Notes: a model not told the origin generated them from the letters alone. DNA of 64,000 nucleotides from Minisyncoccia bacterium (GCA_050008535.1 JBEKML010000001.1:327050-391049); one strand, 5' to 3'; counted from the stretch's first letter, positions 1-13,294 are shown. Translations and numbers: made by a program.

Positions 1-244
1 CTCGCCGCTTTGTACCTCGGCGCGAGCGTCGAGAAGGCAATCAAGACAGCATGTCACCTTTCCATTTTCTGCGAGGAACCGGTGAATGTGATCGGGATAT
101 AAAAGATGCCGCCGCAATTCCTGCGGCGGTGTTTCTTTGCTCACTATCCTTGCCTTCTTCGCCCCTTCGTCGCCTTGTAGCGTTCCCGGCTTATCAACTC
201 GGGACGCTCTGGACTCCTCCCGCCGTTGCGTCATCAATGTTCGT

Positions 245-1579
245 ATGACAAACCAAACCATGGGGGCAAGAGGGATGGGAGTCCCTGCGACGATTCCCGC
301 CCAAGTAAAGGTCAAATATCTGCTTTACGCGAGAAAATCGACGGAATCGGAGGAACGGCAAGTGCTATCAATAGACAGCCAAGTAAAGGAAATGCTCCAG
401 CTTGCGGAGCGCGAGGGGCTGGAGGTTGCGGAGATCCGCCGCGAGAGCCACTCGGCAAAGGCGACTGGGCAACGCCCAGTTTTCAACGAGATCGTCGAAG
501 ATATCCGGAAAGGATTGTTCAACGGCATCCTCACATGGGCACCCGACAGGATCGCGAGGAACGCGGGCGACCTTGGCGCGATCGTGGATCTGATGGACCA
601 GAAGCTGTTGCTTGAGATCCGTACCTTCGGGCAGCACTTCTCAAACAACCCGAACGAAAAATTCCTTCTGATGATCTTGGGATCGCAGGCGAAATTGGAG
701 AACGACAACCGGGGTGTGAACGTGAAGCGCGGGATGCGAAGCCGATGCGAGATGGGGTTGTGGCCGAACTTCGCGCCGCTCGGGTATATCAACCCAAAGA
801 TGATGGACCAGAAGTGCCAGCTCGCGCAGGATCCGCAACGTGCGCCGGTGATTCGCATGATGTTCGAGAAGGTGGGCAACGAGAAATGGAGCGGGCGAAA
901 GGTCTTCAACTGGCTGAAGCACGATCTCAATTTTCACACGCGCGGCAACAAGAACCTCACGCTCTCAGGCATCTATCGAACGCTCACGCAGCCCTTCTAC
1001 TACGGCATGTTCGAATACCCGCGCGACAGCGGGACATGGTATCAAGGCAAGCACAAGCCCATCATCACCGAAGAGCTGTTCCAAAAAGTGCAGGAGCAGC
1101 TGAAGCGCGACCAGATCGTGCGCGAAACCCACGAGTTCGCCTTCACTAAACTATTTACGTGCGGGCTGTGCGGATCCGGCATCTCGGCCGAGGAAAAATT
1201 CAAGCCACTCAAGGACGGCGGCACGAATCGGTATGTTTATTATGGCTGCAGCCGGGCGCGCGACCGCAACTGCAAGAACAAATACATCCGCGAGGAGGAA
1301 CTCATCGAGCAGCTCATCAAAATCCTCGACAAGGTGAACATCAACGAGCTTGGCATGAAGATGAAGCTCGAGGAGGAGATTGGGCGGTTCAACAAGCTGC
1401 AATCCGTCGTGGGCGGGAAGGCTAGGATCGACAATGAGGTTGTAAAAGAGACCGACATCCGCAAGTACGCCAAATACTTATTGCGCGAAGGCAGTGCGAC
1501 CGAGAAGCGGGAGCTGCTGTCGAATTTAAGGAGTAGGCTGATATATAAGAATAAGGAACTTACGCTTGCGGAGGGATAA
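245..1579 (+). CDS. large serine recombinase (resolvase/invertase N-terminal catalytic domain + recombinase domain + C-terminal Zn-ribbon)
   Basis: Catalytic motif YARKSTESEERQ (Ser nucleophile) near the N-terminus. Resolvase-like block ILTWAPDRIARN. C-terminal Cys pairs CGLCGS...YYGCSRARDRNC typical of large serine recombinases. Start set at the ATG at 245 (MTNQTMG); the ORF is open from 137. Confidence 0.8.
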   Translation: MTNQTMGARGMGVPATIPAQVKVKYLLYARKSTESEERQVLSIDSQVKEMLQLAEREGLEVAEIRRESHSAKATGQRPVFNEIVEDIRKGLFNGILTWAPDRIARNAGDLGAIVDLMDQKLLLEIRTFGQHFSNNPNEKFLLMILGSQAKLENDNRGVNVKRGMRSRCEMGLWPNFAPLGYINPKMMDQKCQLAQDPQRAPVIRMMFEKVGNEKWSGRKVFNWLKHDLNFHTRGNKNLTLSGIYRTLTQPFYYGMFEYPRDSGTWYQGKHKPIITEELFQKVQEQLKRDQIVRETHEFAFTKLFTCGLCGSGISAEEKFKPLKDGGTNRYVYYGCSRARDRNCKNKYIREEELIEQLIKILDKVNINELGMKMKLEEEIGRFNKLQSVVGGKARIDNEVVKETDIRKYAKYLLREGSATEKRELLSNLRSRLIYKNKELTLAEG

Positions 1580-2453
1580 AAATTGAGAGTAATTTATCCT
1601 TTAAATTCTGATCTTTCGTGTAGATCAATATTTTGGGGTCACCCTTCACGGTTTTCTGGAAACCTTCCGGAGGCCAGATTAACGAAAGCTGAAGGGGCGG
1701 ACCTGCGAAAATCAGTGCATCTATATTTCCTATTTTCTTGTCTTTCCTCATAAGCTTGAGATACCAACTTGGATCATTGCGGAATATAGGATTCGGATCG
1801 CGCACGTCGAAATACCAAGCAGCCGCATCAGTCCCGTGAAAACCTTTAAATTCAGCGGAATAGCTAAAAAAGAATAAAACTTTTTTGTGGCCGGGGGCAT
1901 TCGCTTGACCTTCAAATTCACCGATATATTCCAGCGGGCGCGACATCTGCGCGATATCACTATCCAAAAAGCCGCCATGACCGATTTCTGTTCGGGTTTG
2001 GGTATAAGTTCCCATTTCATTTTTCTCGACTTCGATGTGGGTATCAGAAAACTTTTTGTGCTGAAAAGTATTCTTACCACCTCCAGCGGATCTCATGGCT
2101 TCAATGCCTTCATGCTCGACTTTTTCGTAACGTTTAGTGGTGAGGCTTTTCACCGATATAAAGATATCATCGAATGAAAAATCAACACCCTGCATGCCCG
2201 CAGGCTCGTACGCCAAATCGGTTTTACCCCTCGTCAGTAATAGATTGGCAAGATTCAATTCCGTCTGAAAGGTAAGAAAATTCTTGATGGATTCATCCGT
2301 CGCCTTGTGAGACAATCTGCCCTTACCGGGAAAGTTGGACTGTTTGATTTTCTCCAATGTAGCGAGGTATCCCTCGTAAGCATCGGGGGCATTGATGTGG
2401 AACCATTCGAGGCATTCGGTCTTGTTTTTGAAATAAAGTTCCGGGTTCGACAT
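1560..2453 (-). CDS. hypothetical protein (297 aa), AT-rich cargo gene of unknown function
   Basis: Long ORF with lower GC than the flanks. Start/stop is shared with the upstream 220-aa ORF at 2453. No motif recognised. Confidence 0.5.
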   Translation of the reverse strand: MSNPELYFKNKTECLEWFHINAPDAYEGYLATLEKIKQSNFPGKGRLSHKATDESIKNFLTFQTELNLANLLLTRGKTDLAYEPAGMQGVDFSFDDIFISVKSLTTKRYEKVEHEGIEAMRSAGGGKNTFQHKKFSDTHIEVEKNEMGTYTQTRTEIGHGGFLDSDIAQMSRPLEYIGEFEGQANAPGHKKVLFFFSYSAEFKGFHGTDAAAWYFDVRDPNPIFRNDPSWYLKLMRKDKKIGNIDALIFAGPPLQLSLIWPPEGFQKTVKGDPKILIYTKDQNLKDKLLSIFIPPQA

Positions 2454-3115
2454 TAGATCATTTTGTCGCGCAATTTATCTTGGAAAACTATCGCCGGACC
2501 ATCGCCGATCTTGATGCTTTCTCTTAGATTTACCTCGAGTTGCATCGGGGAAATTTCCTTATAAAACATAGTTACCATGCCTACATTAAAATCGATATCA
2601 TCTGAATCGGCGGCGGTCACGATATATATCGGCAAAGAATCTTCCTTGATGGCCATATCGTAGAGCGGTTTGAAGTCGGTAATGTCGCGATGACTTCCTA
2701 AAATGATGCTGTAAGATTTCAGTCTCGGTCGTATTTTCTTTTCTATAAAGTCGCTGAAAGATTTTTCGTGCGATGTAAATTCTTTTACGTCGCAGACCAT
2801 CTTGTTGAATAAGGGGCGCGGACCAGATAATTCTTTTACGGAGAGTATATTGACATCATTTTCCGGCCCGGTTGGAAATTCGAGAAAGTGCTCCTTGTTT
2901 TCCCAATGATTCAGCGCCGCTGCTGCAAATAATGCAAAATAGCCTTCGCGTAATCTTTTGTATTTCACATTATCGAGGAAGGTGCTTTTATTCGGAGCAT
3001 TCCTATATATTTCTTCAAAGACCTTATAAACACTCGGTAGGGGCAGCATTCTATCCAACGAGAAAATATCCGTTTGGGTTTCTGCGATTCTTTTTAGAAA
3101 TTCGCCCTGGTCCAT
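2453..3115 (-). CDS. hypothetical protein (220 aa), AT-rich cargo gene of unknown function
   Basis: Long AT-rich ORF translationally coupled to the 297-aa ORF. Lies between tRNA-Ser and the serine recombinase. No motif recognised. Confidence 0.5.
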   Translation of the reverse strand: MDQGEFLKRIAETQTDIFSLDRMLPLPSVYKVFEEIYRNAPNKSTFLDNVKYKRLREGYFALFAAAALNHWENKEHFLEFPTGPENDVNILSVKELSGPRPLFNKMVCDVKEFTSHEKSFSDFIEKKIRPRLKSYSIILGSHRDITDFKPLYDMAIKEDSLPIYIVTAADSDDIDFNVGMVTMFYKEISPMQLEVNLRESIKIGDGPAIVFQDKLRDKMI

Positions 3116-3177
3116 AGCGAAAGAATTATAGCAAAAATCGCGGCCACTCGGGTCGCTCCGATAAGAAATTGTACCTG

Positions 3178-3264
3178 CGGAGGCGGAAGGATTCGAACCT
3201 TCGAAGGGATTCCTCCCTTAACATCTTAGCAGGATGCTGCCTTAAGCCGCTCGGCCACGCCTCC
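3178..3264 (-). tRNA. tRNA-Ser (anticodon GCU), long variable arm
   Basis: Reverse complement reads GGAGGCG TG GCCGAGCGGCTTAAGGC A GCATC CTGCTAA GATGT, then the variable hairpin AGGGA..TCCCT, then GAAGG TTCGAAT CCTTC CGCCTCC G. Cloverleaf checked by hand. Confidence 0.8.
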
Positions 3265-3331
3265 AAACTACTTCGTCATGGTACACAATAAACTTGTTTT
3301 TATCAAGATTTTCTGATACATTTCATTGGTT

Positions 3332-4816
3332 ATGGCAAGCGAAATTCCTGGGAAAAATATAAAACCGCGTCCGCCGATCGTGGTTGTCGTGGGGCACGTT
3401 GACCACGGGAAGACGACGCTTCTGGACTACATCCGGAAGACGACGGTTGCCGCGCGCGAAGCGGGCGGCATTACGCAGGCCGTGGGCGCGTATGAAATTG
3501 TGCATGCGCCGGCCGCCGGAGGCCCGGCGCGGAAGATCACTTTCATTGACACGCCCGGGCACGAGGCGTTCACGGCGATGCGTTCGCGCGGCGCGCAGGC
3601 GGCGGACCTCGCCGTTCTTGTGGTTGCTGCTGACGAGGGCGTGAAGCCGCAGACAAAAGAAGCGATAAAAATTTTGGAAGAGACAAAAACGCCGTTTGTT
3701 GTCGCGCTCAATAAAATTGACAAGGTGCAGGGCGGCAATCTTGAAAAAGCGAAGACGGATCTCGCGAACGCGGGCGTGTTGCTGGAGGGCTACGGAGGGC
3801 AGGTGAGCTATCACGGCGTTTCTGCAAAGACAGGCGAAGGCGTGAGCGATCTTCTGGATCTTATTCTTCTTTCCACCGACGTTGAAAATTTGACCTACGA
3901 TGCGGCCGCCGCCGCGAGTGGATTTGTGCTTGAAGCGCGGCGCGATCCGCGGCGCGGCATTGAAGCGAGCGTAATCGTAAGGGAAGGAACGCTCCATCGC
4001 GGCGATGCAGTAAAGACGCACACCGCAAGCGGCAAAGTGAAGATACTCGAGGATTTTACGGGGAAAGCCGTTGATGTTTTGGAGCCGTCCGCGCCGGCGG
4101 TGATCATCGGTTTTGAGAAGCTGCCGAACGTGGGCGAAGTGTTCGCGGTGGGGGAATTGAAAGAGGCCCAATCGCCGCAGGCGCAGGAGGCGATCGCAAC
4201 GCAGATCGCAAAATCAAAGCCGAATACCTTGAATTTGATCCTTAAGGCCTCCGACGCGGGTTCGCTTGAAGCGCTTTTGGTCGTTTTGAAGAGCGTTGAT
4301 AAACAGGGTGGCAAGGAGATCAACGTGGTTGAGGAATCGGTCGGTGATGTGACCGACGGCGACGTGCGCCGCGCGCAGGCGACAAATGCCACGATCATCG
4401 GGTTCAAAAACAAGGTGGAAAAAGGCGCAAGGAACCTTGCGGATGCACAGACGGTCATGATCATCACTTCAGATGTCGTTTATGATCTTGCGAAGGCCGT
4501 GGAAGATTTTCTTACGGGGAAATTAGGTCCGGCAACGGCGGGCGAACTTGAAGTGCTTGCGGTCTTCAATCAGGAAAAATTGGACAAACAGCTGATTGGC
4601 GGCCGTGTGGAGAAAGGAACATTCCGTGCGAAAGCGTCGTTTGAGATTTTGCGCGGGAGCGGCACGCCGAAAACCTCGCTCGGCACCGGCCGTGCCTTGA
4701 GCTTGCGCGAGAAAAAATCAGAGATCGCGACGGCTGAAAAAGGAAAAGAGATCGGCATCCTCGCGAGCTCGCAGATTGCGATCCAGGTGGGCGATACGCT
4801 CGTCATCCATAAATAA
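3332..4816 (+). CDS. infB: translation initiation factor IF-2 (short form, G domain + C-terminal domains)
   Basis: G1 motif [16 protein letters not shown] and [12 protein letters not shown] shows G4. The ATG at 3332 follows a TTG at 3326. At about 495 aa it lacks the long N-terminal region of typical IF-2. Confidence 0.85.
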
Positions 4817-5176: not shown

Positions 5177-5251
5177 GGCCACGTAGCCAAGTAGCAAGGC
5201 GAGGGTCTGCAAAACCCTTATACGCGGGTGCGATTCCCGCCGTGGCCTCCA
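5177..5251 (+). tRNA. tRNA-Cys (anticodon GCA) with encoded CCA
   Basis: Acceptor GGCCACG/CGTGGCC. Anticodon stem AGGGT/ACCCT with loop CUGCAAA. The T-loop is atypical (TGCGATT). Ends with CCA. Confidence 0.7.
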
Positions 5252-5253
5252 GG

Positions 5254-5781
5254 ATGAACAAAAGCATGCTCCAAGTAATAATTATCATCATCTTTGTGTT
5301 TCTCGTGGGAGGCGTGATTGGCTATTTTGCCTGGGGGAAAAAACAAACCTCTGTTCCTGGGCAAACGTCAAGCCGGAAAATAACGTATGTGACCCTAAGT
5401 ATAGCGGCGCCGTTTTCCAATGCTGTGCTTACCATTAAAGAAGATGGTTCCATCGCCTATTGGGCCCAGGAGCCCAACCAGGCGAGAATCAAGGATTCCG
5501 GGACTCTGACCCTGCCCCAAATAAAAGAGCTTAACGACTTGATTGAACAAAATAATTTCTTTGAAATGAAAAGTAACAACGATAATCCCACTGGCATGAC
5601 GGACGGTTCCACGTACGCTATTGCCGTTAGTTATGTTTTATCCGGTCAACTAGATGGCAGTGCTGTCCCCATAACATACTTGGTAAGTTGTTATGAACCG
5701 GACTGCGAGTTCGGCTTTTCGCAGATCAGAGACAAAATTCTTAGCCTTTGGGGTAAAGACGTTTTGAATGTCGGTGTTTGA
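5254..5781 (+). CDS. hypothetical membrane-anchored/secreted protein (175 aa)
   Basis: ATG at 5254. N-terminal hydrophobic segment VIIIIIFVFLVGGVIGYFAW. AT-richer than the genome. Lies between two tRNA genes. Confidence 0.45.
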   Translation: MNKSMLQVIIIIIFVFLVGGVIGYFAWGKKQTSVPGQTSSRKITYVTLSIAAPFSNAVLTIKEDGSIAYWAQEPNQARIKDSGTLTLPQIKELNDLIEQNNFFEMKSNNDNPTGMTDGSTYAIAVSYVLSGQLDGSAVPITYLVSCYEPDCEFGFSQIRDKILSLWGKDVLNVGV

Positions 5782-5841
5782 TTTGGGGGTTGGTTTTCTC
5801 TTGCACGAGCGCTAAAATGAGCGTAGGTTTGTTTGAAATAT

Positions 5842-5924
5842 GCCTGGGTGGCGGAATGGTATACGCAGAGGACTTAAAATCCTTAGCCCGAAAGGGCTTG
5901 TGGGTTCGACTCCCACCCCGGGCA
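5842..5924 (+). tRNA. tRNA-Leu (anticodon UAA), long variable arm
   Basis: GCCTGGG acceptor, anticodon loop CUUAAAA, variable hairpin AGCCCGAAAGGGCT, T-arm GTGGG TTCGACT CCCAC. Confidence 0.8.
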
Positions 5925-5934
5925 CAAGAAAAAA

Positions 5935-6255
5935 ATGAAGAAAAAAATGGTTGGAGATTTCGGCTTAATCATCAACGCGATTGGCGCTTTGCTGTTGGCG
6001 ATATCCTTCGCTGAATATTCTGGGGAAAGTGTCCGAGGGACAACTGGCGCCGAATATCATCCTGCATTTATGAATCACTACGGAGCTATGCTTGGCTTAT
6101 CTCTGCTAATTTTAGGTTTTTCCTTACAATTTCTAGAAAGGCAAAACAAGAACAAAACCCAAGTTCCCCTGAAAGACCTGTTAATAGTTGTTCTAGTAGC
6201 AGAAGTGATTTTCTTTTTATCGCTTACGTTTTCGGGGACTATACTATTTCGTTAA
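5935..6255 (+). CDS. hypothetical small membrane protein (106 aa, 2-3 TM helices)
   Basis: Hydrophobic stretches LIINAIGALLLAISFA and LGLSLLILGFSLQF. AT-rich. Confidence 0.4.
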   Translation: MKKKMVGDFGLIINAIGALLLAISFAEYSGESVRGTTGAEYHPAFMNHYGAMLGLSLLILGFSLQFLERQNKNKTQVPLKDLLIVVLVAEVIFFLSLTFSGTILFR

Positions 6256-6289
6256 AGGCTAGAATCATTCGAAGATCATCCAGTCCTGC

Positions 6290-6441
6290 GCACAAAAGCA
6301 AGCACACCCCTCGTAAGGGCGTCTCGGAGCCACGGCGGCTTGAGGCAACCTTTAGGTTGCCTGCCGTGGCGAGAGAGAGGCGCATTTCCCCGCTGGAGGA
6401 AATGACGCCGTCCCTTACGAGGGGTGTGCTTGCTTTTGTGC
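6290..6441. repeat. 152-nt structured element bounded by about 30-bp terminal inverted repeats (MITE-like or structured RNA) abutting tRNA-Leu(CAA)
   Basis: Left arm GCACAAAAGCAAGCACACCCCTCGTAAGGGCG (6290-6321). Right arm is its reverse complement with one inserted base (6409-6441). Two internal hairpins (GCCACGG..CCGTGGC enclosing GGCAACC TTTA GGTTGCC, and CATTTCC..GGAAATG). The right arm overlaps the tRNA 3' end by 3 nt. Confidence 0.5.
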
Positions 6442-6521
6442 CCGAGGAGGGAGTCGAACCCTCACGACCTTGCGATCATTGGATTTTGAGTCCAACGCGT
6501 CTGCCATTCCGCCACCCGGGC
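6439..6521 (-). tRNA. tRNA-Leu (anticodon CAA), long variable arm
   Basis: Reverse complement reads GCCCGGG TG GCGGAATGGCAGACGC G TTGGA CUCAAAA TCCAA, variable arm TGATCGCAAGGTCGTG, GAGGG TTCGACT CCCTC, CTCGGGC A. Confidence 0.8.
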
Positions 6522-6587: not shown

Positions 6588-7406
6588 ATGGCGCGCGTGA
6601 TCGCGATTTGTAATCAAAAAGGAGGCGTTGGGAAGACAACCACGGCGGTGAATTTGGGGGCGTACCTCGCGGCGGCGGGCCGGCGCGTTTTGCTCGTTGA
6701 TTTCGATCCGCAGGCGAACGCGAGTTCGGCGCTCGGCCACAACATAAAAGAAGGGGCGAGCGTGTATCATGGCATTTTGGGGACGGTGTCGCACGAAGAA
6801 GTTGTAAAACCGACCGTTCTTTTTAACTATCACCTTGTTCCATCTGCGCCGCACCTCGCTGGAGCGCTCGTGGAGCTCGTAGGTGTTCCTGAACGCGAAT
6901 ATTTTCTGCGGAAATTCGTGAACCGCCTACGCCACAATTACGATTACATTCTGATCGACCTTCCGCCCAGCTTGAGCCTACTTACGGTAAATGGCCTCGT
7001 TGCCGCCGATGAGGTTTTGATCCCGGTGCAGACGGAGTATTACAGCTTAGAGGGGATCGGCCAGCTTTTGGAGACTATAGCGTTGATCAACAGCAATCTT
7101 CGCCATCCGCTCCGCATCGCGGGTGCGCTCATCACGATGTACGACAAGCGCGAACATCTAAGCCGCGAAGTTTCAAAAAATATCAGGCGGCATTTTCCGC
7201 ACCATGTGTTTGAAGTGGAAATTCCCCGCGCGGTCGCGCTTGCCGAGGCACCGAGTTTTTCCAAACCGATCATTTTGTATCGTCCGGACTCGCTGGGAGC
7301 GTTGGCGTATGAGCGGCTCGCGAAGGAAATTATGGCGCAAGAAGGGGATTATAATTTGCCGCGCGAGGTCGTAGCAAGCGAAAACTTTGGGAATTTTAAT
7401 ATTTGA
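6588..7406 (+). CDS. parA: chromosome partitioning ATPase ParA/Soj
   Basis: Deviant Walker A KGGVGKTTTAVNLGA. ParA-family size. Directly followed by parB. Confidence 0.85.
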   Translation: MARVIAICNQKGGVGKTTTAVNLGAYLAAAGRRVLLVDFDPQANASSALGHNIKEGASVYHGILGTVSHEEVVKPTVLFNYHLVPSAPHLAGALVELVGVPEREYFLRKFVNRLRHNYDYILIDLPPSLSLLTVNGLVAADEVLIPVQTEYYSLEGIGQLLETIALINSNLRHPLRIAGALITMYDKREHLSREVSKNIRRHFPHHVFEVEIPRAVALAEAPSFSKPIILYRPDSLGALAYERLAKEIMAQEGDYNLPREVVASENFGNFNI

Positions 7407-7408
7407 CC

Positions 7409-8569
7409 ATGCTTGGAAAAGGACTTGAATCGCTTATACCACAGAAGGGGAATGGGGCCGGCGCTGCCGGATCGGACGGCGTTTCGTCGCAGCCGCCGGC
7501 GTCCGAACCCGAGGTGCAGCGCGAGGAACAGCGTAGTGAACCACATGAAGAGTCTTATGGGGGAGGTACATTGCAGCAGCCGCCGCCGCCGCAAATTGTT
7601 TCCGTGCCGCCCATGATGCCACCTGTTGTATTGTCGCCCGTGACAACGCCCGCCGCGACTGCCGCGAAAGTGTTTGAAGATCGGCGCCAGGACAAAACCG
7701 GCAAACCAGAGGAGATACAGTCTGTTTTCCATATTGAGATAGACAAGATCAAGCCGAACCCGACCCAGCCGCGGCGGAATTTTGACGAAGGGGGGCTCCG
7801 CGACCTTGCGCATTCCATCCGCGAGTTTGGATTTTTGCAGCCGCTTGTGGTTTCGCGGGTTGAAAAGGAAACAATAGATGGCGTGGGCGTCGAATATCAA
7901 TTGATCGCCGGCGAGCGGCGGCTCATGGCTGCGAAGATGCTGGGGCTTGCGACGGTGCCGGCCATTGTGCGGAATGTGGACCTTGAGCGCGAGAAATTGG
8001 AGCTCGCGGTGATCGAGAATATCCAGCGTGAGAATTTGAATCCAATAGAGGCTGCGCGCGCATTCCAGCGATTACAGGAAGAATTCCGTATGACCCAGCG
8101 CGAGATCGCGGCGAAGCTCGGCAAATCCCGCGAGGTCGTGGCGAACGCCGTCCGGCTGCTTGATCTGCCGGAAGAGATCCGGGTGGCGGTAGAGAAGGGC
8201 GATCTTTCGGAAAGCAGCGCGCGCATGCTCTTGGCAATCGGCGATCCGGGCGCGCAGAAACGCCTCTTTGAGGATATCGTGCAAAATCGGCTTACGACGC
8301 GGGATGTGAAGGAGCGTGTGCAGCAGTTCAGCGCGAGCACGGGCACGGGCGTGGCCGGAGCTCACGGGCACCGCCGCGGGCGCCCGCCGAAGAGCGCGGA
8401 AGCGCCGCTGCCTACGGAACTCCGCGCGATGCAGGAATCGCTTTCAAGCGACCTCGGTGCGCCCGTGGAGATTCATAAGGGCGCGAATACCGGGCGCATC
8501 ACGATCACCTTCTATTCCGAAGAGGAACTGGAAAATATCTTGCGGAAACTGGGAAAGGAGCGATTCTAG
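7409..8569 (+). CDS. parB: chromosome partitioning protein ParB/Spo0J with Pro-rich N-terminal extension
   Basis: ParB box GFLQPLVV...IAGERRLMAAKMLGL and an HTH region. The first roughly 100 aa are low-complexity Pro/Gln-rich. The ATG at 7409 follows a TTG at 7403. Confidence 0.85.
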   Translation: MLGKGLESLIPQKGNGAGAAGSDGVSSQPPASEPEVQREEQRSEPHEESYGGGTLQQPPPPQIVSVPPMMPPVVLSPVTTPAATAAKVFEDRRQDKTGKPEEIQSVFHIEIDKIKPNPTQPRRNFDEGGLRDLAHSIREFGFLQPLVVSRVEKETIDGVGVEYQLIAGERRLMAAKMLGLATVPAIVRNVDLEREKLELAVIENIQRENLNPIEAARAFQRLQEEFRMTQREIAAKLGKSREVVANAVRLLDLPEEIRVAVEKGDLSESSARMLLAIGDPGAQKRLFEDIVQNRLTTRDVKERVQQFSASTGTGVAGAHGHRRGRPPKSAEAPLPTELRAMQESLSSDLGAPVEIHKGANTGRITITFYSEEELENILRKLGKERF

Positions 8570-8576
8570 GCGGTTC

Positions 8577-10274
8577 TTACGCGAACTTGTAGCTTATTTC
8601 CCTCACCTCTTTTATTTTCTTCAGCTTCACCACAAGCTTTTCAATCTTTATTTTATCCGTTGTGGAGACCTCGATGTGATAGAACTGGAAGCGCCCGCCC
8701 TTCGGATGGTCGGTATTGAAGTGCATGATGGTGAAGTGCTGGCGGGCGATCGCGGTCGAAATGTCTTTAATGAGTCCCACGCGCGTTTCGACGGTGATTT
8801 TGAGTTCGGTGTGCGTAGGCGCCTTGGCGGTTTGCGCAAATGCATTCTTTTCGCGGAGGGCGAGCTTGATGTGGCCGCGTGCAATGTCTGTTTTTACGAA
8901 TCGGAGCCAATCCTCGGAGGGCTTCTTCCCTTTTTGGACGATGATCTCCACGACATCGCCCGACCGCAGTGGGTGATCGAGCGGCGTGAGCGTGCCGTTT
9001 ATTTTTGCGCCCGCGCAGGAATTCCCGACTATGGAATGGATATGGTAGGCAAAGTCCACCGGCGTCGCTCCCCGGGGAAGATCAATCACATCGCCGCGCG
9101 GCGTTACGGCGAAGATCCGGTCCCTGAAGAAATCGATCTTCATTGCGCGGATGAGCTCTTCCGGGTCTTTTTCTTTTCCAAAAAAGCGTTCCTGCCAATT
9201 CTTCAATTGTTGCACCCACGTGATCTCTTCCGCCATTTTTTTCCCGGAGATCCGTTCGCCACGGCGGTTTTGATCATAGAGCCAGTGGGCGGCCACGCCG
9301 AATTCGTTCTCATCATGCATCTCTTTCGTGCGGATCTGGAACTCTATTGTCTTGTCGCCAGGGCCGATCACCGTTGTATGCAAGCTGCGGTAACCGTTCG
9401 GTTTCGGCATGGCGATGTAATCCTTGATGCGGCGGGGGACGGGCGGCCACGCTTCATGGATCACGCCCAAGGCCGCATAGCACTCCGGGATCGTTTCCAT
9501 GATCACGCGCATGGCGACGAGGTCGTGGATCTTCCCTATGTCCATGTCGCGCCGGAGCAATTTTTTATACAAGCTCGCATAGCGTTTGGCGCGGATCTCG
9601 ATGTCGTGCGGCTTGAGGTCGTGTTCCTCAAGCAGTTTCTTCACCTGCGGCTTCATTTTCTCAAGATAGGCAAGCCGCGATTGGTATTGTTCTTTTGTGG
9701 TTGCGAGGAGCCAGCGGTATTCCTGCGGATGGAGGTAAGGAAAAGCGAGATCTTCCAATTCGCCGCTCAAGTCATGCATGCCAAGGCGGTAGGCGAGCGG
9801 CGCATAGATCTCGTCGGTTTCCATCGCGACCCGTTTCTGCTTCACGGGCGGGAGCGCTTGGAGTGTTCGCATGTTGTGCAGGCGGTCGGCGAGCTTGATC
9901 AAGACCACGCGGAGGTCTTCCGAGATCGCAAGGATCATTTTCCGGAGATTTTCCACTTTGTTCTCCGCTCCGCGGTATTTGATGCGGCCGAGTTTTGTCA
10001 CGCCGTCCACGAGGAACGCGATCTCTTCGCCGAATTCTTTTTTGACCGTTTCGAGCGGCACGCTGGTGTCCTCGACCGTATCGTGCAAAAGTCCTGCGGC
10101 GATCGTGGCTTCGTCAAGATGCCAATCATTGAGGGTCCCCGCGGTCGCGAGCGGATGATTGAGATACGGCTCGCCGGTCTTCCGCTTTTGGTCCGCATGC
10201 GCCTTCTCTGCGAGAGCGTACGCTTTCGCAATAATGCCGGTCGGATTCTGTTTGACGAGTTCTTTTATTGTCAC
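8577..10274 (-). CDS. bifunctional (p)ppGpp synthetase/hydrolase RelA/SpoT homolog (short, 565 aa)
   Basis: HD hydrolase motif HDTVEDT. Synthetase block RVIMETIPECYAALGVIHEAWPPVPRRIKDYIAMPKPNGYRSLHTTVIGP. A TGS-like region follows. The C-terminal regulatory region is shortened. Confidence 0.85.
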   Translation of the reverse strand: MTIKELVKQNPTGIIAKAYALAEKAHADQKRKTGEPYLNHPLATAGTLNDWHLDEATIAAGLLHDTVEDTSVPLETVKKEFGEEIAFLVDGVTKLGRIKYRGAENKVENLRKMILAISEDLRVVLIKLADRLHNMRTLQALPPVKQKRVAMETDEIYAPLAYRLGMHDLSGELEDLAFPYLHPQEYRWLLATTKEQYQSRLAYLEKMKPQVKKLLEEHDLKPHDIEIRAKRYASLYKKLLRRDMDIGKIHDLVAMRVIMETIPECYAALGVIHEAWPPVPRRIKDYIAMPKPNGYRSLHTTVIGPGDKTIEFQIRTKEMHDENEFGVAAHWLYDQNRRGERISGKKMAEEITWVQQLKNWQERFFGKEKDPEELIRAMKIDFFRDRIFAVTPRGDVIDLPRGATPVDFAYHIHSIVGNSCAGAKINGTLTPLDHPLRSGDVVEIIVQKGKKPSEDWLRFVKTDIARGHIKLALREKNAFAQTAKAPTHTELKITVETRVGLIKDISTAIARQHFTIMHFNTDHPKGGRFQFYHIEVSTTDKIKIEKLVVKLKKIKEVREISYKFA

Positions 10275-10396
10275 CTTCTCATCTTATCTCCGAAAGAAAC
10301 GATTAGGCAGGGATTGACGAAACGAAGACGGATATGGTATAGTATTCCTAGTCTCGGGGGCCCATGAGGCCGCCGAACAAACGGAGATCTTCTCAT

Positions 10397-10900
10397 ATGA
10401 GCACTAGAAAGATCGTGGTAACCGCCTGCGGTTTAAGTCTAATAGGCGGCATTCTGGGTTTGGCGGTGCTATTTTTCTTGTCCGCGACGCGCGCCGTCGT
10501 TCCCGCATATTATTGTGGGCTTGTCGCTCTTTCTCTCTGCGCGGTAGCTGCGATGACCTTCTGCCTTGATAAGATTATGCTCGCCGCGCTGGAGGAGAGC
10601 TTTGGCAAGGAGGTTGTCATCGCGCTCAGGTTGAACGAGATCGAGCTCTGCCGGGCGGAAATCAACAAAATCCTCCGCCGACTCGAGGCGGAATGTCGCA
10701 AAGTGAAAATGGAGCTGGCGGCATTCCGCGCTAGCACCCACACATTCAAGTTTGGCACCATTCAGTGCGACCGCCTGCAAGCGTTGGTGGACGATCTCGA
10801 ATTCACTAACAACTCTCTTCGGACCGCGAGGAGTGCGGCGAGATACGTCGGTGTCGCCAGCGTGCGTAGGCAGCTTCGCATGAGGCCGCTCCAGCTCTAG
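10397..10900 (+). CDS. hypothetical membrane protein (167 aa)
   Basis: ATG at 10397 (MSTRKIVV). Two hydrophobic helices followed by a coiled-coil-like region. No motif recognised. Confidence 0.4.
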   Translation: MSTRKIVVTACGLSLIGGILGLAVLFFLSATRAVVPAYYCGLVALSLCAVAAMTFCLDKIMLAALEESFGKEVVIALRLNEIELCRAEINKILRRLEAECRKVKMELAAFRASTHTFKFGTIQCDRLQALVDDLEFTNNSLRTARSAARYVGVASVRRQLRMRPLQL

Positions 10901-10966: not shown

Positions 10967-13294
10967 TTATTCTTCGCCACTTGTCTTTTTGCCACCCTTC
11001 TTTTTGGGCGGATTTTCTTTCCAATATTTAAACGCCGCCTCAAGTTCCGCTTCCGACTCCGGTTTTTTGTTCATGACGAATGTGCAGTCGGGATAGCGCG
11101 TGCAGGCATAAAAAGGCCTGCCGCGGCCGCGGGACTTTTTCTCCACGATATCTCCCGGCTTATCAAACCGATCGTTTGAAGCAAGGCACGCGGGGCATTT
11201 GAATCCGGTCTTGTTCCATATTTTTGATATGCCCTTGCAGGTTGGATAATTGCTGCAGCCGAGGAAAAAGCCGAAGCGGCCGCGGCGCACTTTCATCGGT
11301 TTTCCGCAAAGCGGACAGTGCTCGTCTTTTGTTTTTTCTTCAAGCTCGCGGATCTGTGCCGCCTCTTCTGGCATGGGAAGCGTCACCTTTACGGCGGGAT
11401 CGGGGCAGGCGAGGAATTTCCCCATGCGGCCGAACTTGATCACCATCGGTTTCCCGCAGTGCGGGCAGGGCGTCGTGGAAATTTCAACCTGTTTTGTGAC
11501 CGACGCTTCCTTTTCGTCCAGCTCCTTTTTGAACGGGCCGTAGAATTCGCGGCATACGTCCGTCCATTTCATTTTCCCTTCGGCGATCTCGTCCAGTTCC
11601 TCTTCGATGTGGGAAGTGAATTTTACATCCACGATTTCCGGAAAATTTTCCACGAGGAGGTCGTTCACCACGAAACCGATCTCCGTCGGGTGGTATTTTT
11701 TCTCCATTTTTTCCACGTAGCCGCGGTCCTGGATGGTCGAAAGGGTCGGCGCGTACGTGGATGGCCTACCGATACCCTCGGCTTCAAGTGCCTTCACGAG
11801 CGTGGCATCCGTATAGCGCGGCGGCGGTTCAGTGAAGTGCTGGACCGGTTTTATTTCATCGAGCGTCAGCCGCATGTCCTTTGTGAGTTTCGGGAGCTGG
11901 CCTTCTATCTCGCCGCCGTTCGCGCCGTTGCCGTTCGCGCCTTCGTCGCGGCCTTCGGTATAGACGCGGATGAAGCCGTCAAATTTCACCGTTTGTCCGT
12001 TCGCCCGGAAGATCTCTTTTTTTGCAGTGTCGGCTTCAATGTCCACCGCGGTTTGCTCAAGGAGCGCCTCCTTCATTTGTGAAGCGACCGTGCGTTTCCA
12101 AATAAGATCGTAAAGCCGCTGGTCGTTGCGTTCTTTGACGCCGAGCGCAGGGCCAGACGTGGCGCGGAGATTCGTGGGGCGGATCGCTTCGTGCGCTTCC
12201 TGTGCGCCTTTGCTTTTTGTGGCGTACCGGCGCGGCTCGGGGAGTTGGTATTCTTTTCCGAATTCCGCGCCGATCACTTCCTGCGCGGTCGCGAGCGCGC
12301 TTTCGGCAAGCTGCACGCTGTCGGTCCTCATGTAGGTGATGTGCCCACGCTCGTAGAGCTTTTGTGCAATGACCATTGTTTGCTTTGCCGAAAAGCCGAG
12401 CTTGCGCGCCGCTTCCTGTTGGAGCGTGGACGTGGTGAACGGGGCCGCGGGATAGCGCCGCACTTCTTTTACGGTGATGTCCAAAATTTTATAATCGGCA
12501 TTTTTCAATCCCTCTATAATTTGTTTCGCTCCGCGGCCGGTCTTGATATCCATTTTGCCGAGCGGCTTGCCGCCAAGGGAAGAGAGGGTGGCGGGAAAAG
12601 GATTTTTTCCTTTCGGCGGAAGAAAAAGCGCTTCAATGGACCAGTACTCTTCTTTATTAAAGGCGTTGATCTGCCGCTCGCGTTCCACGACCAAGCGCAC
12701 GGCCACGCTCTGCACGCGGCCTGCCGAGAGTCCGTAGCGCACCTTGCGCCACAAGAAGGGCGATAGCCCGTATCCCACGAGCCGGTCCAGCACGCGCCGC
12801 GCCTGCTGGGCGTCTATGAGATTGATATCAAGCTCGCGGGGATTTTTTAATGCTTCTTTGATGGCGGATTCGGTGATCTCATGGAACGCGATCCGTTCGT
12901 AGGGGACCGCAAGCATTTTTGCTTTGTCTTTGTTCTTTCCTTTCCCCGTGCCGCCGTCCGCGGGTGCCAGGCCGAGCGCTGCCAGAAGGTGCCACGCGAT
13001 CGCTTCGCCCTCACGGTCTTCATCGGTTGCAAGGATCACCCTTGCGGCTTTCGCGGCGAGCTTCTTCAGATTGGCAACGATCGGCTTTGCCTTCGCCGGG
13101 ATTATATACTGCGGTTCGAAATCATGCTTGACGTCGATGCCCATGGTGCTTTTCGGAAGGTCGCGAATGTGGCCGTAGGACGATTCCACGGTGAATTGTT
13201 TGCCGATGAATTTTCCGATGGTCTTTGCCTTTGTGGGCGATTCAACGATAACGAGATCCATTATTGTTTTGTTTTTATATTGTATACCCTCCAC
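10967..13294 (-). CDS. topA: DNA topoisomerase I with C-terminal zinc-ribbon repeats
   Basis: Toprim N-terminus MDLVIVESPTKAKTIGKFIG and the catalytic region. Several C-terminal CxxC...CxxC zinc ribbons. Lys-rich tail. Confidence 0.9.
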   Translation of the reverse strand: MEGIQYKNKTIMDLVIVESPTKAKTIGKFIGKQFTVESSYGHIRDLPKSTMGIDVKHDFEPQYIIPAKAKPIVANLKKLAAKAARVILATDEDREGEAIAWHLLAALGLAPADGGTGKGKNKDKAKMLAVPYERIAFHEITESAIKEALKNPRELDINLIDAQQARRVLDRLVGYGLSPFLWRKVRYGLSAGRVQSVAVRLVVERERQINAFNKEEYWSIEALFLPPKGKNPFPATLSSLGGKPLGKMDIKTGRGAKQIIEGLKNADYKILDITVKEVRRYPAAPFTTSTLQQEAARKLGFSAKQTMVIAQKLYERGHITYMRTDSVQLAESALATAQEVIGAEFGKEYQLPEPRRYATKSKGAQEAHEAIRPTNLRATSGPALGVKERNDQRLYDLIWKRTVASQMKEALLEQTAVDIEADTAKKEIFRANGQTVKFDGFIRVYTEGRDEGANGNGANGGEIEGQLPKLTKDMRLTLDEIKPVQHFTEPPPRYTDATLVKALEAEGIGRPSTYAPTLSTIQDRGYVEKMEKKYHPTEIGFVVNDLLVENFPEIVDVKFTSHIEEELDEIAEGKMKWTDVCREFYGPFKKELDEKEASVTKQVEISTTPCPHCGKPMVIKFGRMGKFLACPDPAVKVTLPMPEEAAQIRELEEKTKDEHCPLCGKPMKVRRGRFGFFLGCSNYPTCKGISKIWNKTGFKCPACLASNDRFDKPGDIVEKKSRGRGRPFYACTRYPDCTFVMNKKPESEAELEAAFKYWKENPPKKKGGKKTSGEE

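Follow-up and report, generated by a model that had tools for sequence, protein, structure and literature searches.

Organization of the locus

We analyzed a 64,000-nt stretch of DNA from a Minisyncoccia bacterium (GCA_050008535.1, JBEKML010000001.1:327050-391049), a metagenome-assembled genome (MAG) of an ultra-small bacterium from the candidate phyla radiation (CPR); henceforth we refer to the whole stretch as the window. At its left end lies a block consisting of a large serine recombinase (LSR) gene and two uncharacterised minus-strand open reading frames (ORFs), here labelled A and B, adjoining the gene for tRNA-Ser(GCU). The evidence below points to an integrative element at a tRNA-flank hot spot, with A and B as its cargo. 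The features of the locus are as follows (L numbers denote individual loci):

1..102, plus strand: 3′ end of a gene encoding a 164-aa protein (gene call on the source contig; weak Proteasome/HslV-like match, PF00227, 5.9e-5)
109..129, no strand: GC-rich hairpin with T-runs on both flanks, a bidirectional terminator (terminator scan and sequence)
197..209, plus strand: ACTCGGGACGCTC, putative left-hand member of a directly repeated 13-nt pair; a possible core of an attachment (att) site, weak
206..235, plus strand: upstream motif of the LSR clade, GCTCTGGACTCC-N9-TTGCGTCATC (alignment of four orthologous LSR upstream regions)
245..1579, plus strand: LSR, 444 aa (Pfam, PHROG 95, same-site orthologues in L020, L043 and L046)
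1560..2453, minus strand: ORF B, 297 aa (homologues, alignments, AlphaFold2 (AF2) model, substitution rates)
2453..3115, minus strand: ORF A, 220 aa (homologues, alignments, AF2 secondary structure, weak fold matches, ATPase neighbours)
3125..3133, minus strand: extended −10 box, TGCTATAAT, 9 nt ahead of the ATG of A (read from the sequence)
3146..3158, plus strand: ACTCGGGTCGCTC, putative right-hand member of the repeated 13-nt pair (ungapped match to the LSR upstream region)
3150..3176, minus strand: tRNA trailer (near-identical to the trailer of tRNA-Ser(UGA) in L075)
3177..3264, minus strand: tRNA-Ser(GCU), its 3′ end toward the A–B operon (ARAGORN; Rfam 3178-3264, 55 bits)
3326..4816, plus strand: IF2, 496 aa, with which the conserved backbone begins on the right (gene calls, relatives)

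The components described in the original prediction, which was made from the sequence alone, are all present: a recombinase with its catalytic serine in the motif YARKST and a zinc ribbon, two coupled low-GC ORFs of 220 and 297 aa, and tRNA-Ser(GCU). Genes A and B have one base in common at their junction (TAATG), while B and the LSR are convergent, their 3′ ends overlapping by 20 nt. The operon adjoins the tRNA as claimed, but the spacer between the tRNA 3′ end and the ATG of A is 61 nt rather than the 63 nt given at first. The GC content of A is 0.41 and that of B 0.44, compared with 0.55 for the LSR, 0.57 for IF2 and 0.53 for the window as a whole: the base composition of A and B is deviant, that of the LSR is not. 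An Rfam scan of positions 1-3400 returned the tRNA as its sole match. Identical proteins occur on a 496-kb JGI contig (3300038451, Ga0427963_0000021), in the NCBI Minisyncoccia bacterium MAG and on contigs of two other samples.

The extended −10 box TGCTATAAT was not called by a consensus promoter scan; it may be the promoter of A, in which case the mRNA would be near-leaderless. Transcription of A by read-through from the tRNA is the alternative.

The LSR reading frame was listed from a TTG codon (137..1579, plus strand), and an ATG at 245 gives the 444-aa protein. The ATG is almost certainly the true start, because the JGI gene call agrees with it and the N-terminus of the resulting protein aligns with those of orthologues. 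In this numbering the catalytic serine is S32; the zinc ribbon is of the Cys4 type. Three Pfam domains were found, all above their cut-offs: Resolvase (PF00239, 5.1e-19; 69 bits against a cut-off of 23), Recombinase (PF07508, 2.1e-14) and Zn_ribbon_recom (PF13408, 1.3e-9). The protein also matches PHROG 95, ‘integrase’, at 1e-64, and matches the CcrB and XisF models in part. Every match to NCBIfam equivalogs fell far below cut-off. Judged by domain content the recombinase is a bona fide LSR that belongs to no named equivalog subfamily.

A variable site beside a conserved tRNA

IF2-anchored loci from 57 related genomes were compared with the window. On the right-hand side gene order is kept among relatives: tRNA-Ser(GCU)–IF2–RbfA–tRNA-Cys–tRNA-Leu…ParA–ParB–RelA. 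In all 17 of the related loci scanned for tRNAs, tRNA-Ser lies upstream of IF2; this conserved gene anchors the island in the chromosome. The DNA past its 3′ end is hypervariable, each genome having a different set of genes there. All 57 loci have the tRNA-Ser–IF2–RbfA backbone, and not one contains A or B. A gene order and composition conserved across relatives had been named in advance as the pattern that would speak against mobility; with A and B missing from every locus and the flank hypervariable, the claim of a foreign, mobile element is borne out. The insert abuts the tRNA 3′ end and carries an integrase at its edge, as an island does.

The LSR itself has orthologues upstream of the same tRNA and in the same orientation in L020 (70% identity), L043 (67%) and L046 (63%), each with cargo other than A and B. 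Between LSR and tRNA, L020 carries an Eco57I/TaqI-type methyltransferase, an unknown 356-aa protein and a Hypoth_Ymh/Aga_HEPN protein; L043 carries an LmuB-like SMC ATPase (Lamassu; 1.7e-29); L046 carries ADH, hydrolases and a NUDIX–queuosine-salvage gene. Less closely related LSRs lie directly against the tRNA in L023, L035 and L051. There is no LSR at the tRNA-Ser site in L016, the locus with the most similar IF2 (82% identity), nor in L017 (76%). LSR identity does not track IF2 identity (in L043 the IF2 proteins are 49% identical, the LSRs 67%), and thus carries no vertical signal.

A further instance of the same frame is seen in L075, at a different tRNA. There the tRNA-Ser(UGA) trailer is followed by an HNH gene in place of A, then by B (72% identity) and the 3′ end of an LSR, within which the contig ends. 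The last 27 nt of the tRNA together with the trailer, 55 nt in all, are 89% identical between the two loci (window 3204-3150, L075 2044-2098). Together the absence of A and B from the relatives, the LSRs found at the same site with other cargo and the frame in L075 support the reading of the block as an LSR-borne integrative element at a tRNA-flank hot spot.

The orientation of the LSRs is uniform. Across all fetched loci, the 12 LSRs that share a locus with a tRNA converge on it 3′-to-3′ without exception, the tRNAs being Ser-GCU, Leu-UAA, Leu-CAA and Ile-UAU. In eight of the 12 the distance between LSR and tRNA is 4-262 nt; in the remaining four, which are those of the window's clade, cargo of 1.6-4.5 kb separates the two genes. 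Upstream of the LSR, L020 and L046 both encode a phage terminase at a distance of two to three genes, together with a second gene family in common. The terminases are homologous to that of L005, a locus in which B also lies next to an LSR.

Other tRNA flanks nearby are variable as well. In the window, within the region 5177-6521, a 179-aa ORF (5242-5781) lies between tRNA-Cys and tRNA-Leu(UAA), which are separated by just 10-60 nt in the nearest relatives, L016, L017 and L046. The gap between tRNA-Leu(UAA) and tRNA-Leu(CAA) measures 0.5 kb here, with a 106-aa ORF, and 7.7 kb in L016, with an LSR. These gaps are further small insertion hot spots beside tRNAs. At the tRNA-Ser junction, a Logan contig of 35.7 kb (L002; SRR13021960) stops 90 nt upstream of A, within the 3′ end of tRNA-Ser; the break could reflect strain variation at the site, or merely tRNA sequence common to several genomes.

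Extent of the element and candidate att sites

The four orthologous elements remain similar up to a point 50-110 nt ahead of the LSR start, and the outermost feature that they still share is the motif GCTCTGGACTCC-N9-TTGCGTCATC. A related motif is found upstream of the 58%-identical LSR in L009. The motif is either the LSR promoter or 5′ untranslated region, or an att arm borne by the element. Further to the left lies the hairpin at 109..129, which probably marks the chromosomal side of the left junction, followed by the end of the 164-aa gene, which has no homologue beside the LSR in any relative; this gene is unrelated to the recombinase and lies outside the element. Leftward of the window the source contig encodes, in order, the 164-aa protein, a 534-aa trypsin-like protease, small unknowns, YidD, a type III restriction–modification (RM) Mod methylase and a ResIII helicase. 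The 8.4 kb to the left of the block have no gene of a phage or element in common with the related prophages, and neither these 8.4 kb nor the block itself contain phage structural or packaging genes.

Because homology ends near the LSR, because the hairpin and the end of an unrelated convergent gene lie beyond it, and because nothing further left is shared, the unit is probably ∼3 kb long with its left end inside the window; it would be what remains of a prophage, or else a minimal unit. The original prediction had the element span positions 1-3264 and its left boundary lie outside the window. An integrative block beside the tRNA is indeed present, but the first 102 positions are the end of an unrelated gene, and the point at which homology stops, with the hairpin, argues for a boundary within the window.

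The window was searched for a second, directly repeated copy of the tRNA 3′ end, which had been proposed at the outset as the means of defining attL and attR, and no convincing one was found: nothing exceeded an 8-nt match at the LSR stop codon. This 8-mer was rejected as an att remnant, the homologous position in L075 having diverged. Such a repeat is neither to be expected nor required for a serine recombinase. When the region upstream of the LSR was compared with the tRNA trailer, the highest-scoring ungapped match was the 13-nt repeat at 197-209 and 3146-3158, a score reached by 16 of 300 shuffles. L020 (TCGGTCGC) and L046 (TTCGTCGCCT) have short repeats of a similar kind in corresponding places.

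The relatives show other repeats near the tRNA. In L043 (9681-9698), L022 (9438-9454), L018 (9770-9780) and L010 (∼11215-11245) the tRNA is followed, at a distance of 70-176 nt, by tRNA-like fragments or by incomplete copies of its 3′ end 11-18 nt in length; these are likely scars of past integrations or excisions. In L023 a perfect inverted repeat of at least 34 nt (7395-7428 and 9101-9134; ∼95 nt by eye) brackets the LSR gene, taking in the terminal 4 nt of tRNA-Ser as well as the 3′ end of the recombinase gene. The arrangement suggests either an att site overlapping the LSR 3′ end or an invertible segment.

The way in which homology among the elements ends just upstream of the LSR also bears on what kind of unit this is. 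Rather than a remnant, the LSR block could be a complete minimal mobile unit: an integrase with a swappable slot, hopping between tRNA-Ser genes. The trailer–X–B–LSR frame, present here at tRNA-Ser(GCU) and in L075 at tRNA-Ser(UGA), fits such a unit, as do the short repeats with a TCG..TCGC theme at both ends in the window, L020 and L046, and a left flank free of phage genes over 8.4 kb. However, the terminase and the second shared family upstream of the LSR mean that at least L020 and L046 are larger prophages; moreover, the repeat statistics are weak, the L075 contig stops inside the LSR, and a 3-kb circle would be without transfer functions. We consider a self-sufficient minimal unit unlikely.

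Restriction-endonuclease-like signatures in A and B

Searches covered 5.8 and 1.8 billion representative sequences, drawn from ∼15 billion proteins, and yielded ∼80 cluster representatives for A and ∼50 for B. A word-indexed search returned 20 homologues of A and 22 of B; for A the number rose to 78 once a profile was used, whereas for B a profile search run exhaustively over 1.84 billion representatives found only 47 relatives. The ratio of non-synonymous to synonymous substitution rates (dN/dS) of B, measured against a homologue of 88% identity, is ∼0.05, indicative of strong purifying selection. Because of this ratio and the presence of invariant residues in both families, A and B are, on sequence grounds, both real genes; the possibility that the ORFs are non-coding, raised with the original prediction, thus falls away.

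Neither protein has a significant match in Pfam, NCBIfam, PHROGs or PADLOC, and searching singly and member by member gave nothing consistent. PADLOC-DB v2 contains no match for A, B or the LSR at E<=1, sequence-profile searches of PDB with A and B found nothing, none of the listed homologues of A or B carries a precomputed Pfam domain, and A does not match the AriB, PtuB or TOPRIM models. The description of the two proteins as having no recognisable domains therefore holds for libraries of hidden Markov models, but does not extend to their conserved residues: both A and B have restriction-endonuclease-like signatures with conserved catalytic-type residues.

In A, eight residues are invariant across 73 sequences (R56, E57, Y59, D87, D109, K111, E112 and Y135) and define a signature of the form E…D…DxK, in which D87 and D109 are 22 residues apart. 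The AF2 model of A has a predicted local distance difference test (pLDDT) score of 83 and its core is αβββαβ (H50-72, E76-79, E88-95, E102-113, H120-131, E136-141). The best Foldseek match is MspJI (E 0.017, template-modelling (TM) score 0.30), and Cas4 is also returned; all matches are weak. The core layout and signature make A a candidate PD-(D/E)xK-like nuclease.

In B, E65, N67, D91, Y214, Y231 and W260 are invariant in 47 sequences. Position 100 is S in 42 of these, E in three and D in one; K102 is found in 46 and E113 in 41. The resulting signature is D91…S100-x-K102 (SVK)…E113, with a conserved E on the next helix, and resembles the ‘PD…SxK…E’ variant of the Cfr10I/NgoMIV type. The AF2 model (pLDDT 91) has an order of secondary-structure elements compatible with a PD-(D/E)xK core. 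Weak RE_MjaI and DpnII-MboI matches are found in one or two members of the family. An hhalign comparison found no relationship between A and B.

A and B in other genomic contexts

Only in the subclade closest to the window do A and B lie side by side; the pair is not obligate. Elsewhere A lies directly downstream of a variable partner, from which it is separated by 6-18 nt or with which it shares a short overlap. In L080 and L081 the partners are AriA/OLD/PtuA-like ABC ATPases, which places A in the position of an effector. In L006 the partner is a protease like those of reverse transcriptase (RT)-protease/Avs1b systems, in L009 a 907-aa protein, in L014 a 569-aa protein, and in L012 and L082 small proteins. 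The gene ahead of B is A, a gene for an HNH nuclease (L075) or one of two unrelated genes, for proteins of 217 and 221 aa (L004, L010); in L005 B stands alone. The L075 HNH gene shows weak PtuB similarity. Neighbouring genes of A and B homologues include Mrr, type III RM, HerA-like, SIR2_2, AIPR and Fic, and in all eight further contexts the homologues have a lower GC content than the host locus.

Other relationships among these proteins were looked for. The B partners in L004 and L010 were considered as relatives of A and are unrelated to the A profile; the A and B profiles gave nothing against an Mrr protein; and the idea of A as an immunity protein for a common toxin domain was rejected, an all-versus-all comparison of the partner proteins having revealed no shared domain.

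Two of these contexts, and the source contig, show additional features. In L009 (4363-13848) five genes on the same strand encode a 292-aa protein (with a weak Cap4-nuclease match), the 907-aa unknown, the A homologue, an N6/N4 methylase and a ResIII helicase; this block, divergent from an LSR that abuts tRNA-Leu(UAA), may be a larger composite defence system. In L006 a 2.2-kb ORF-free stretch past the A homologue is the 16S rRNA gene (9025-10504). On the source contig another defence system occupies the same neighbourhood as the block: a type III RM system (L001 17975-20894, 6-11 kb left of the window start) in which a Mod methylase (PADLOC MTase_III, 5e-206) stands beside a ResIII helicase, with a somewhat low GC content of 0.50.

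Proximity to recombinases is a recurrent theme. Most contexts of B place it next to an LSR. The two genes converge and overlap in the window and in L075; in L005 a single small gene separates them, and in L010 B stands upstream at a distance of two small genes. Close to A, an intact LSR is found in L009 and LSR remnants in L012 and L014. Given also that known recombination directionality factors of LSRs are unrelated, mid-sized, co-opted proteins, A and/or B might serve not in defence but as accessory factors of the LSR, controlling recombination directionality, the att site or the choice of target. We think this very improbable: the closest LSR orthologues (63-70%; L020, L043, L046) lack both A and B, and the LSRs that accompany B share no more than 27-49% identity with that of the window, so that there is no cognate pairing. 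In addition, A and B occur without an LSR within 7-8 kb (L077, L079-L082), and their invariant acidic and lysine residues point to catalysis.

The arrangement of two coupled genes on a mobile element also calls to mind a toxin–antitoxin (TA) or addiction pair that stabilizes the island, one protein being a nuclease toxin and the other its neutraliser. In favour of such a pair, partner genes are variable, as in modular TA systems, and two nuclease types, A and HNH, are swapped upstream of B within a conserved frame. The proteins are, however, large (220 and 297 aa), no antitoxin-type domain (helix-turn-helix, ribbon-helix-helix or AbrB) was found in them, neither Pfam nor NCBIfam contains a TA-family match, and each gene is found without the other in most contexts. 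A TA function thus appears improbable.

An explanation for the locus

On balance we favor, with guarded confidence, the view that an LSR-placed unit derived from a CPR prophage lineage occupies the flank of tRNA-Ser(GCU), and that its cargo, A–B, is nuclease-like and probably anti-phage. The LSR of this lineage would have placed the segment from ∼130/200 to 3176 at the 3′ flank of the tRNA. The copy in this genome is most likely a remnant, in which the integrase and the integrase-to-att ‘moron’ slot have been retained and the phage body has gone. The slot would carry two independently mobile, low-GC and rare genes whose products are most likely PD-(D/E)xK-type nucleases, and which probably form a restriction-like or abortive anti-phage module: A would cleave DNA as the effector, and B would serve either as another subunit of nuclease fold or as a sensor. 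For both proteins, nuclease activity and a role in defence are suggested by motifs, predicted secondary structure and gene position; the exact junctions of the element are putative, as is any present activity of the LSR. The earlier suggestion of a toxin/defence or anti-defence pair survives in part: the context fits a guess of defence, with function still inferential, but A and B are not an obligate pair.

Several observations weigh against this view. No significant sequence or fold match connects A or B to any known nuclease; for B, Foldseek searches of PDB and BFVD gave no match, with nothing above a TM score of 0.17 in PDB. A and B are mostly found apart, and may therefore be two unrelated single-gene functions packed together. 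Neither family was found in IMG/VR, among INPHARED phages or in PLSDB plasmids. The metabolic cargo of L046 means that position in the slot does not by itself imply defence. Finally, the GC content of the LSR is host-like, so the unit is not uniformly foreign, and the sole att candidate is a marginal 13-nt repeat with a score equalled in the shuffles.

Relation to known systems and significance

The LSR has the three-domain architecture, with a serine nucleophile, of the integrases of phiC31, Bxb1, TP901-1, SPbeta (SprA) and SCCmec (CcrA/B), and like these it stands at the edge of an inserted block; in contrast to them it converges on a tRNA 3′ end and falls outside the named subfamilies. In a survey of mycobacterial prophages, tRNA-overlapping attB sites belonged to tyrosine integrases, and a satellite with a serine integrase (a phage-inducible chromosomal island, PICI) was integrated away from tRNA genes (PMC10654092). 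The association of the present serine integrases with tRNA flanks is thus atypical.

The place of the cargo also has parallels. Prophages and satellites of the P2/P4 type have hotspots for defence or ‘moron’ genes between the integrase and the att site. The window's clade likewise has a variable slot in otherwise orthologous elements, filled by RM, a Lamassu-like ATPase or A–B. Unlike the P2/P4-type hotspots it is found in a CPR host, with a serine and not a tyrosine recombinase, with the phage body missing and, in one relative, with metabolic genes in the slot. The A homologues of L080 and L081 occupy the nuclease-effector position of PARIS (AriA/AriB), Septu (PtuA/PtuB), AbiL and OLD/Gabija systems, whereas A of the window is without an ATPase partner: it opens its operon, and the gene after it, B, does not encode an ATPase. 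With PD-(D/E)xK restriction-endonuclease-like nucleases A has in common the E…D…DxK signature on an αβββαβ core, and B the D…SVK signature with a conserved E; they differ from these nucleases in the lack of significant profile or fold matches, in the extra, functionally uncharacterised domains of both proteins and in the lack of an adjacent methyltransferase.

Taken together, the block belongs to a familiar class, that of LSR elements carrying accessory cargo; what is unusual are the tRNA-facing LSRs in CPR and the two rare, uncharacterised families of probable nucleases. A bolder proposal, which we hold only tentatively and regard as doubtful, is that A and B are the founders of two undescribed nuclease families which, alone or with swappable partners, constitute new anti-phage modules, B having a fold outside PDB and BFVD, and that they ride in the cargo slot of a CPR prophage lineage whose LSRs unusually target tRNA 3′ ends.

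To our knowledge CPR/Patescibacteria rarely possess CRISPR, and their resistance to phages is poorly known. Against this background the locus provides a concrete hot spot, beside tRNA-Ser(GCU), at which serine-integrase elements deliver RM, Lamassu-like and unknown cargo. The A and B families are testable candidates for nucleases or defence proteins, and the association with tRNA 3′ ends could yield new site-specific integrases with defined natural targets.

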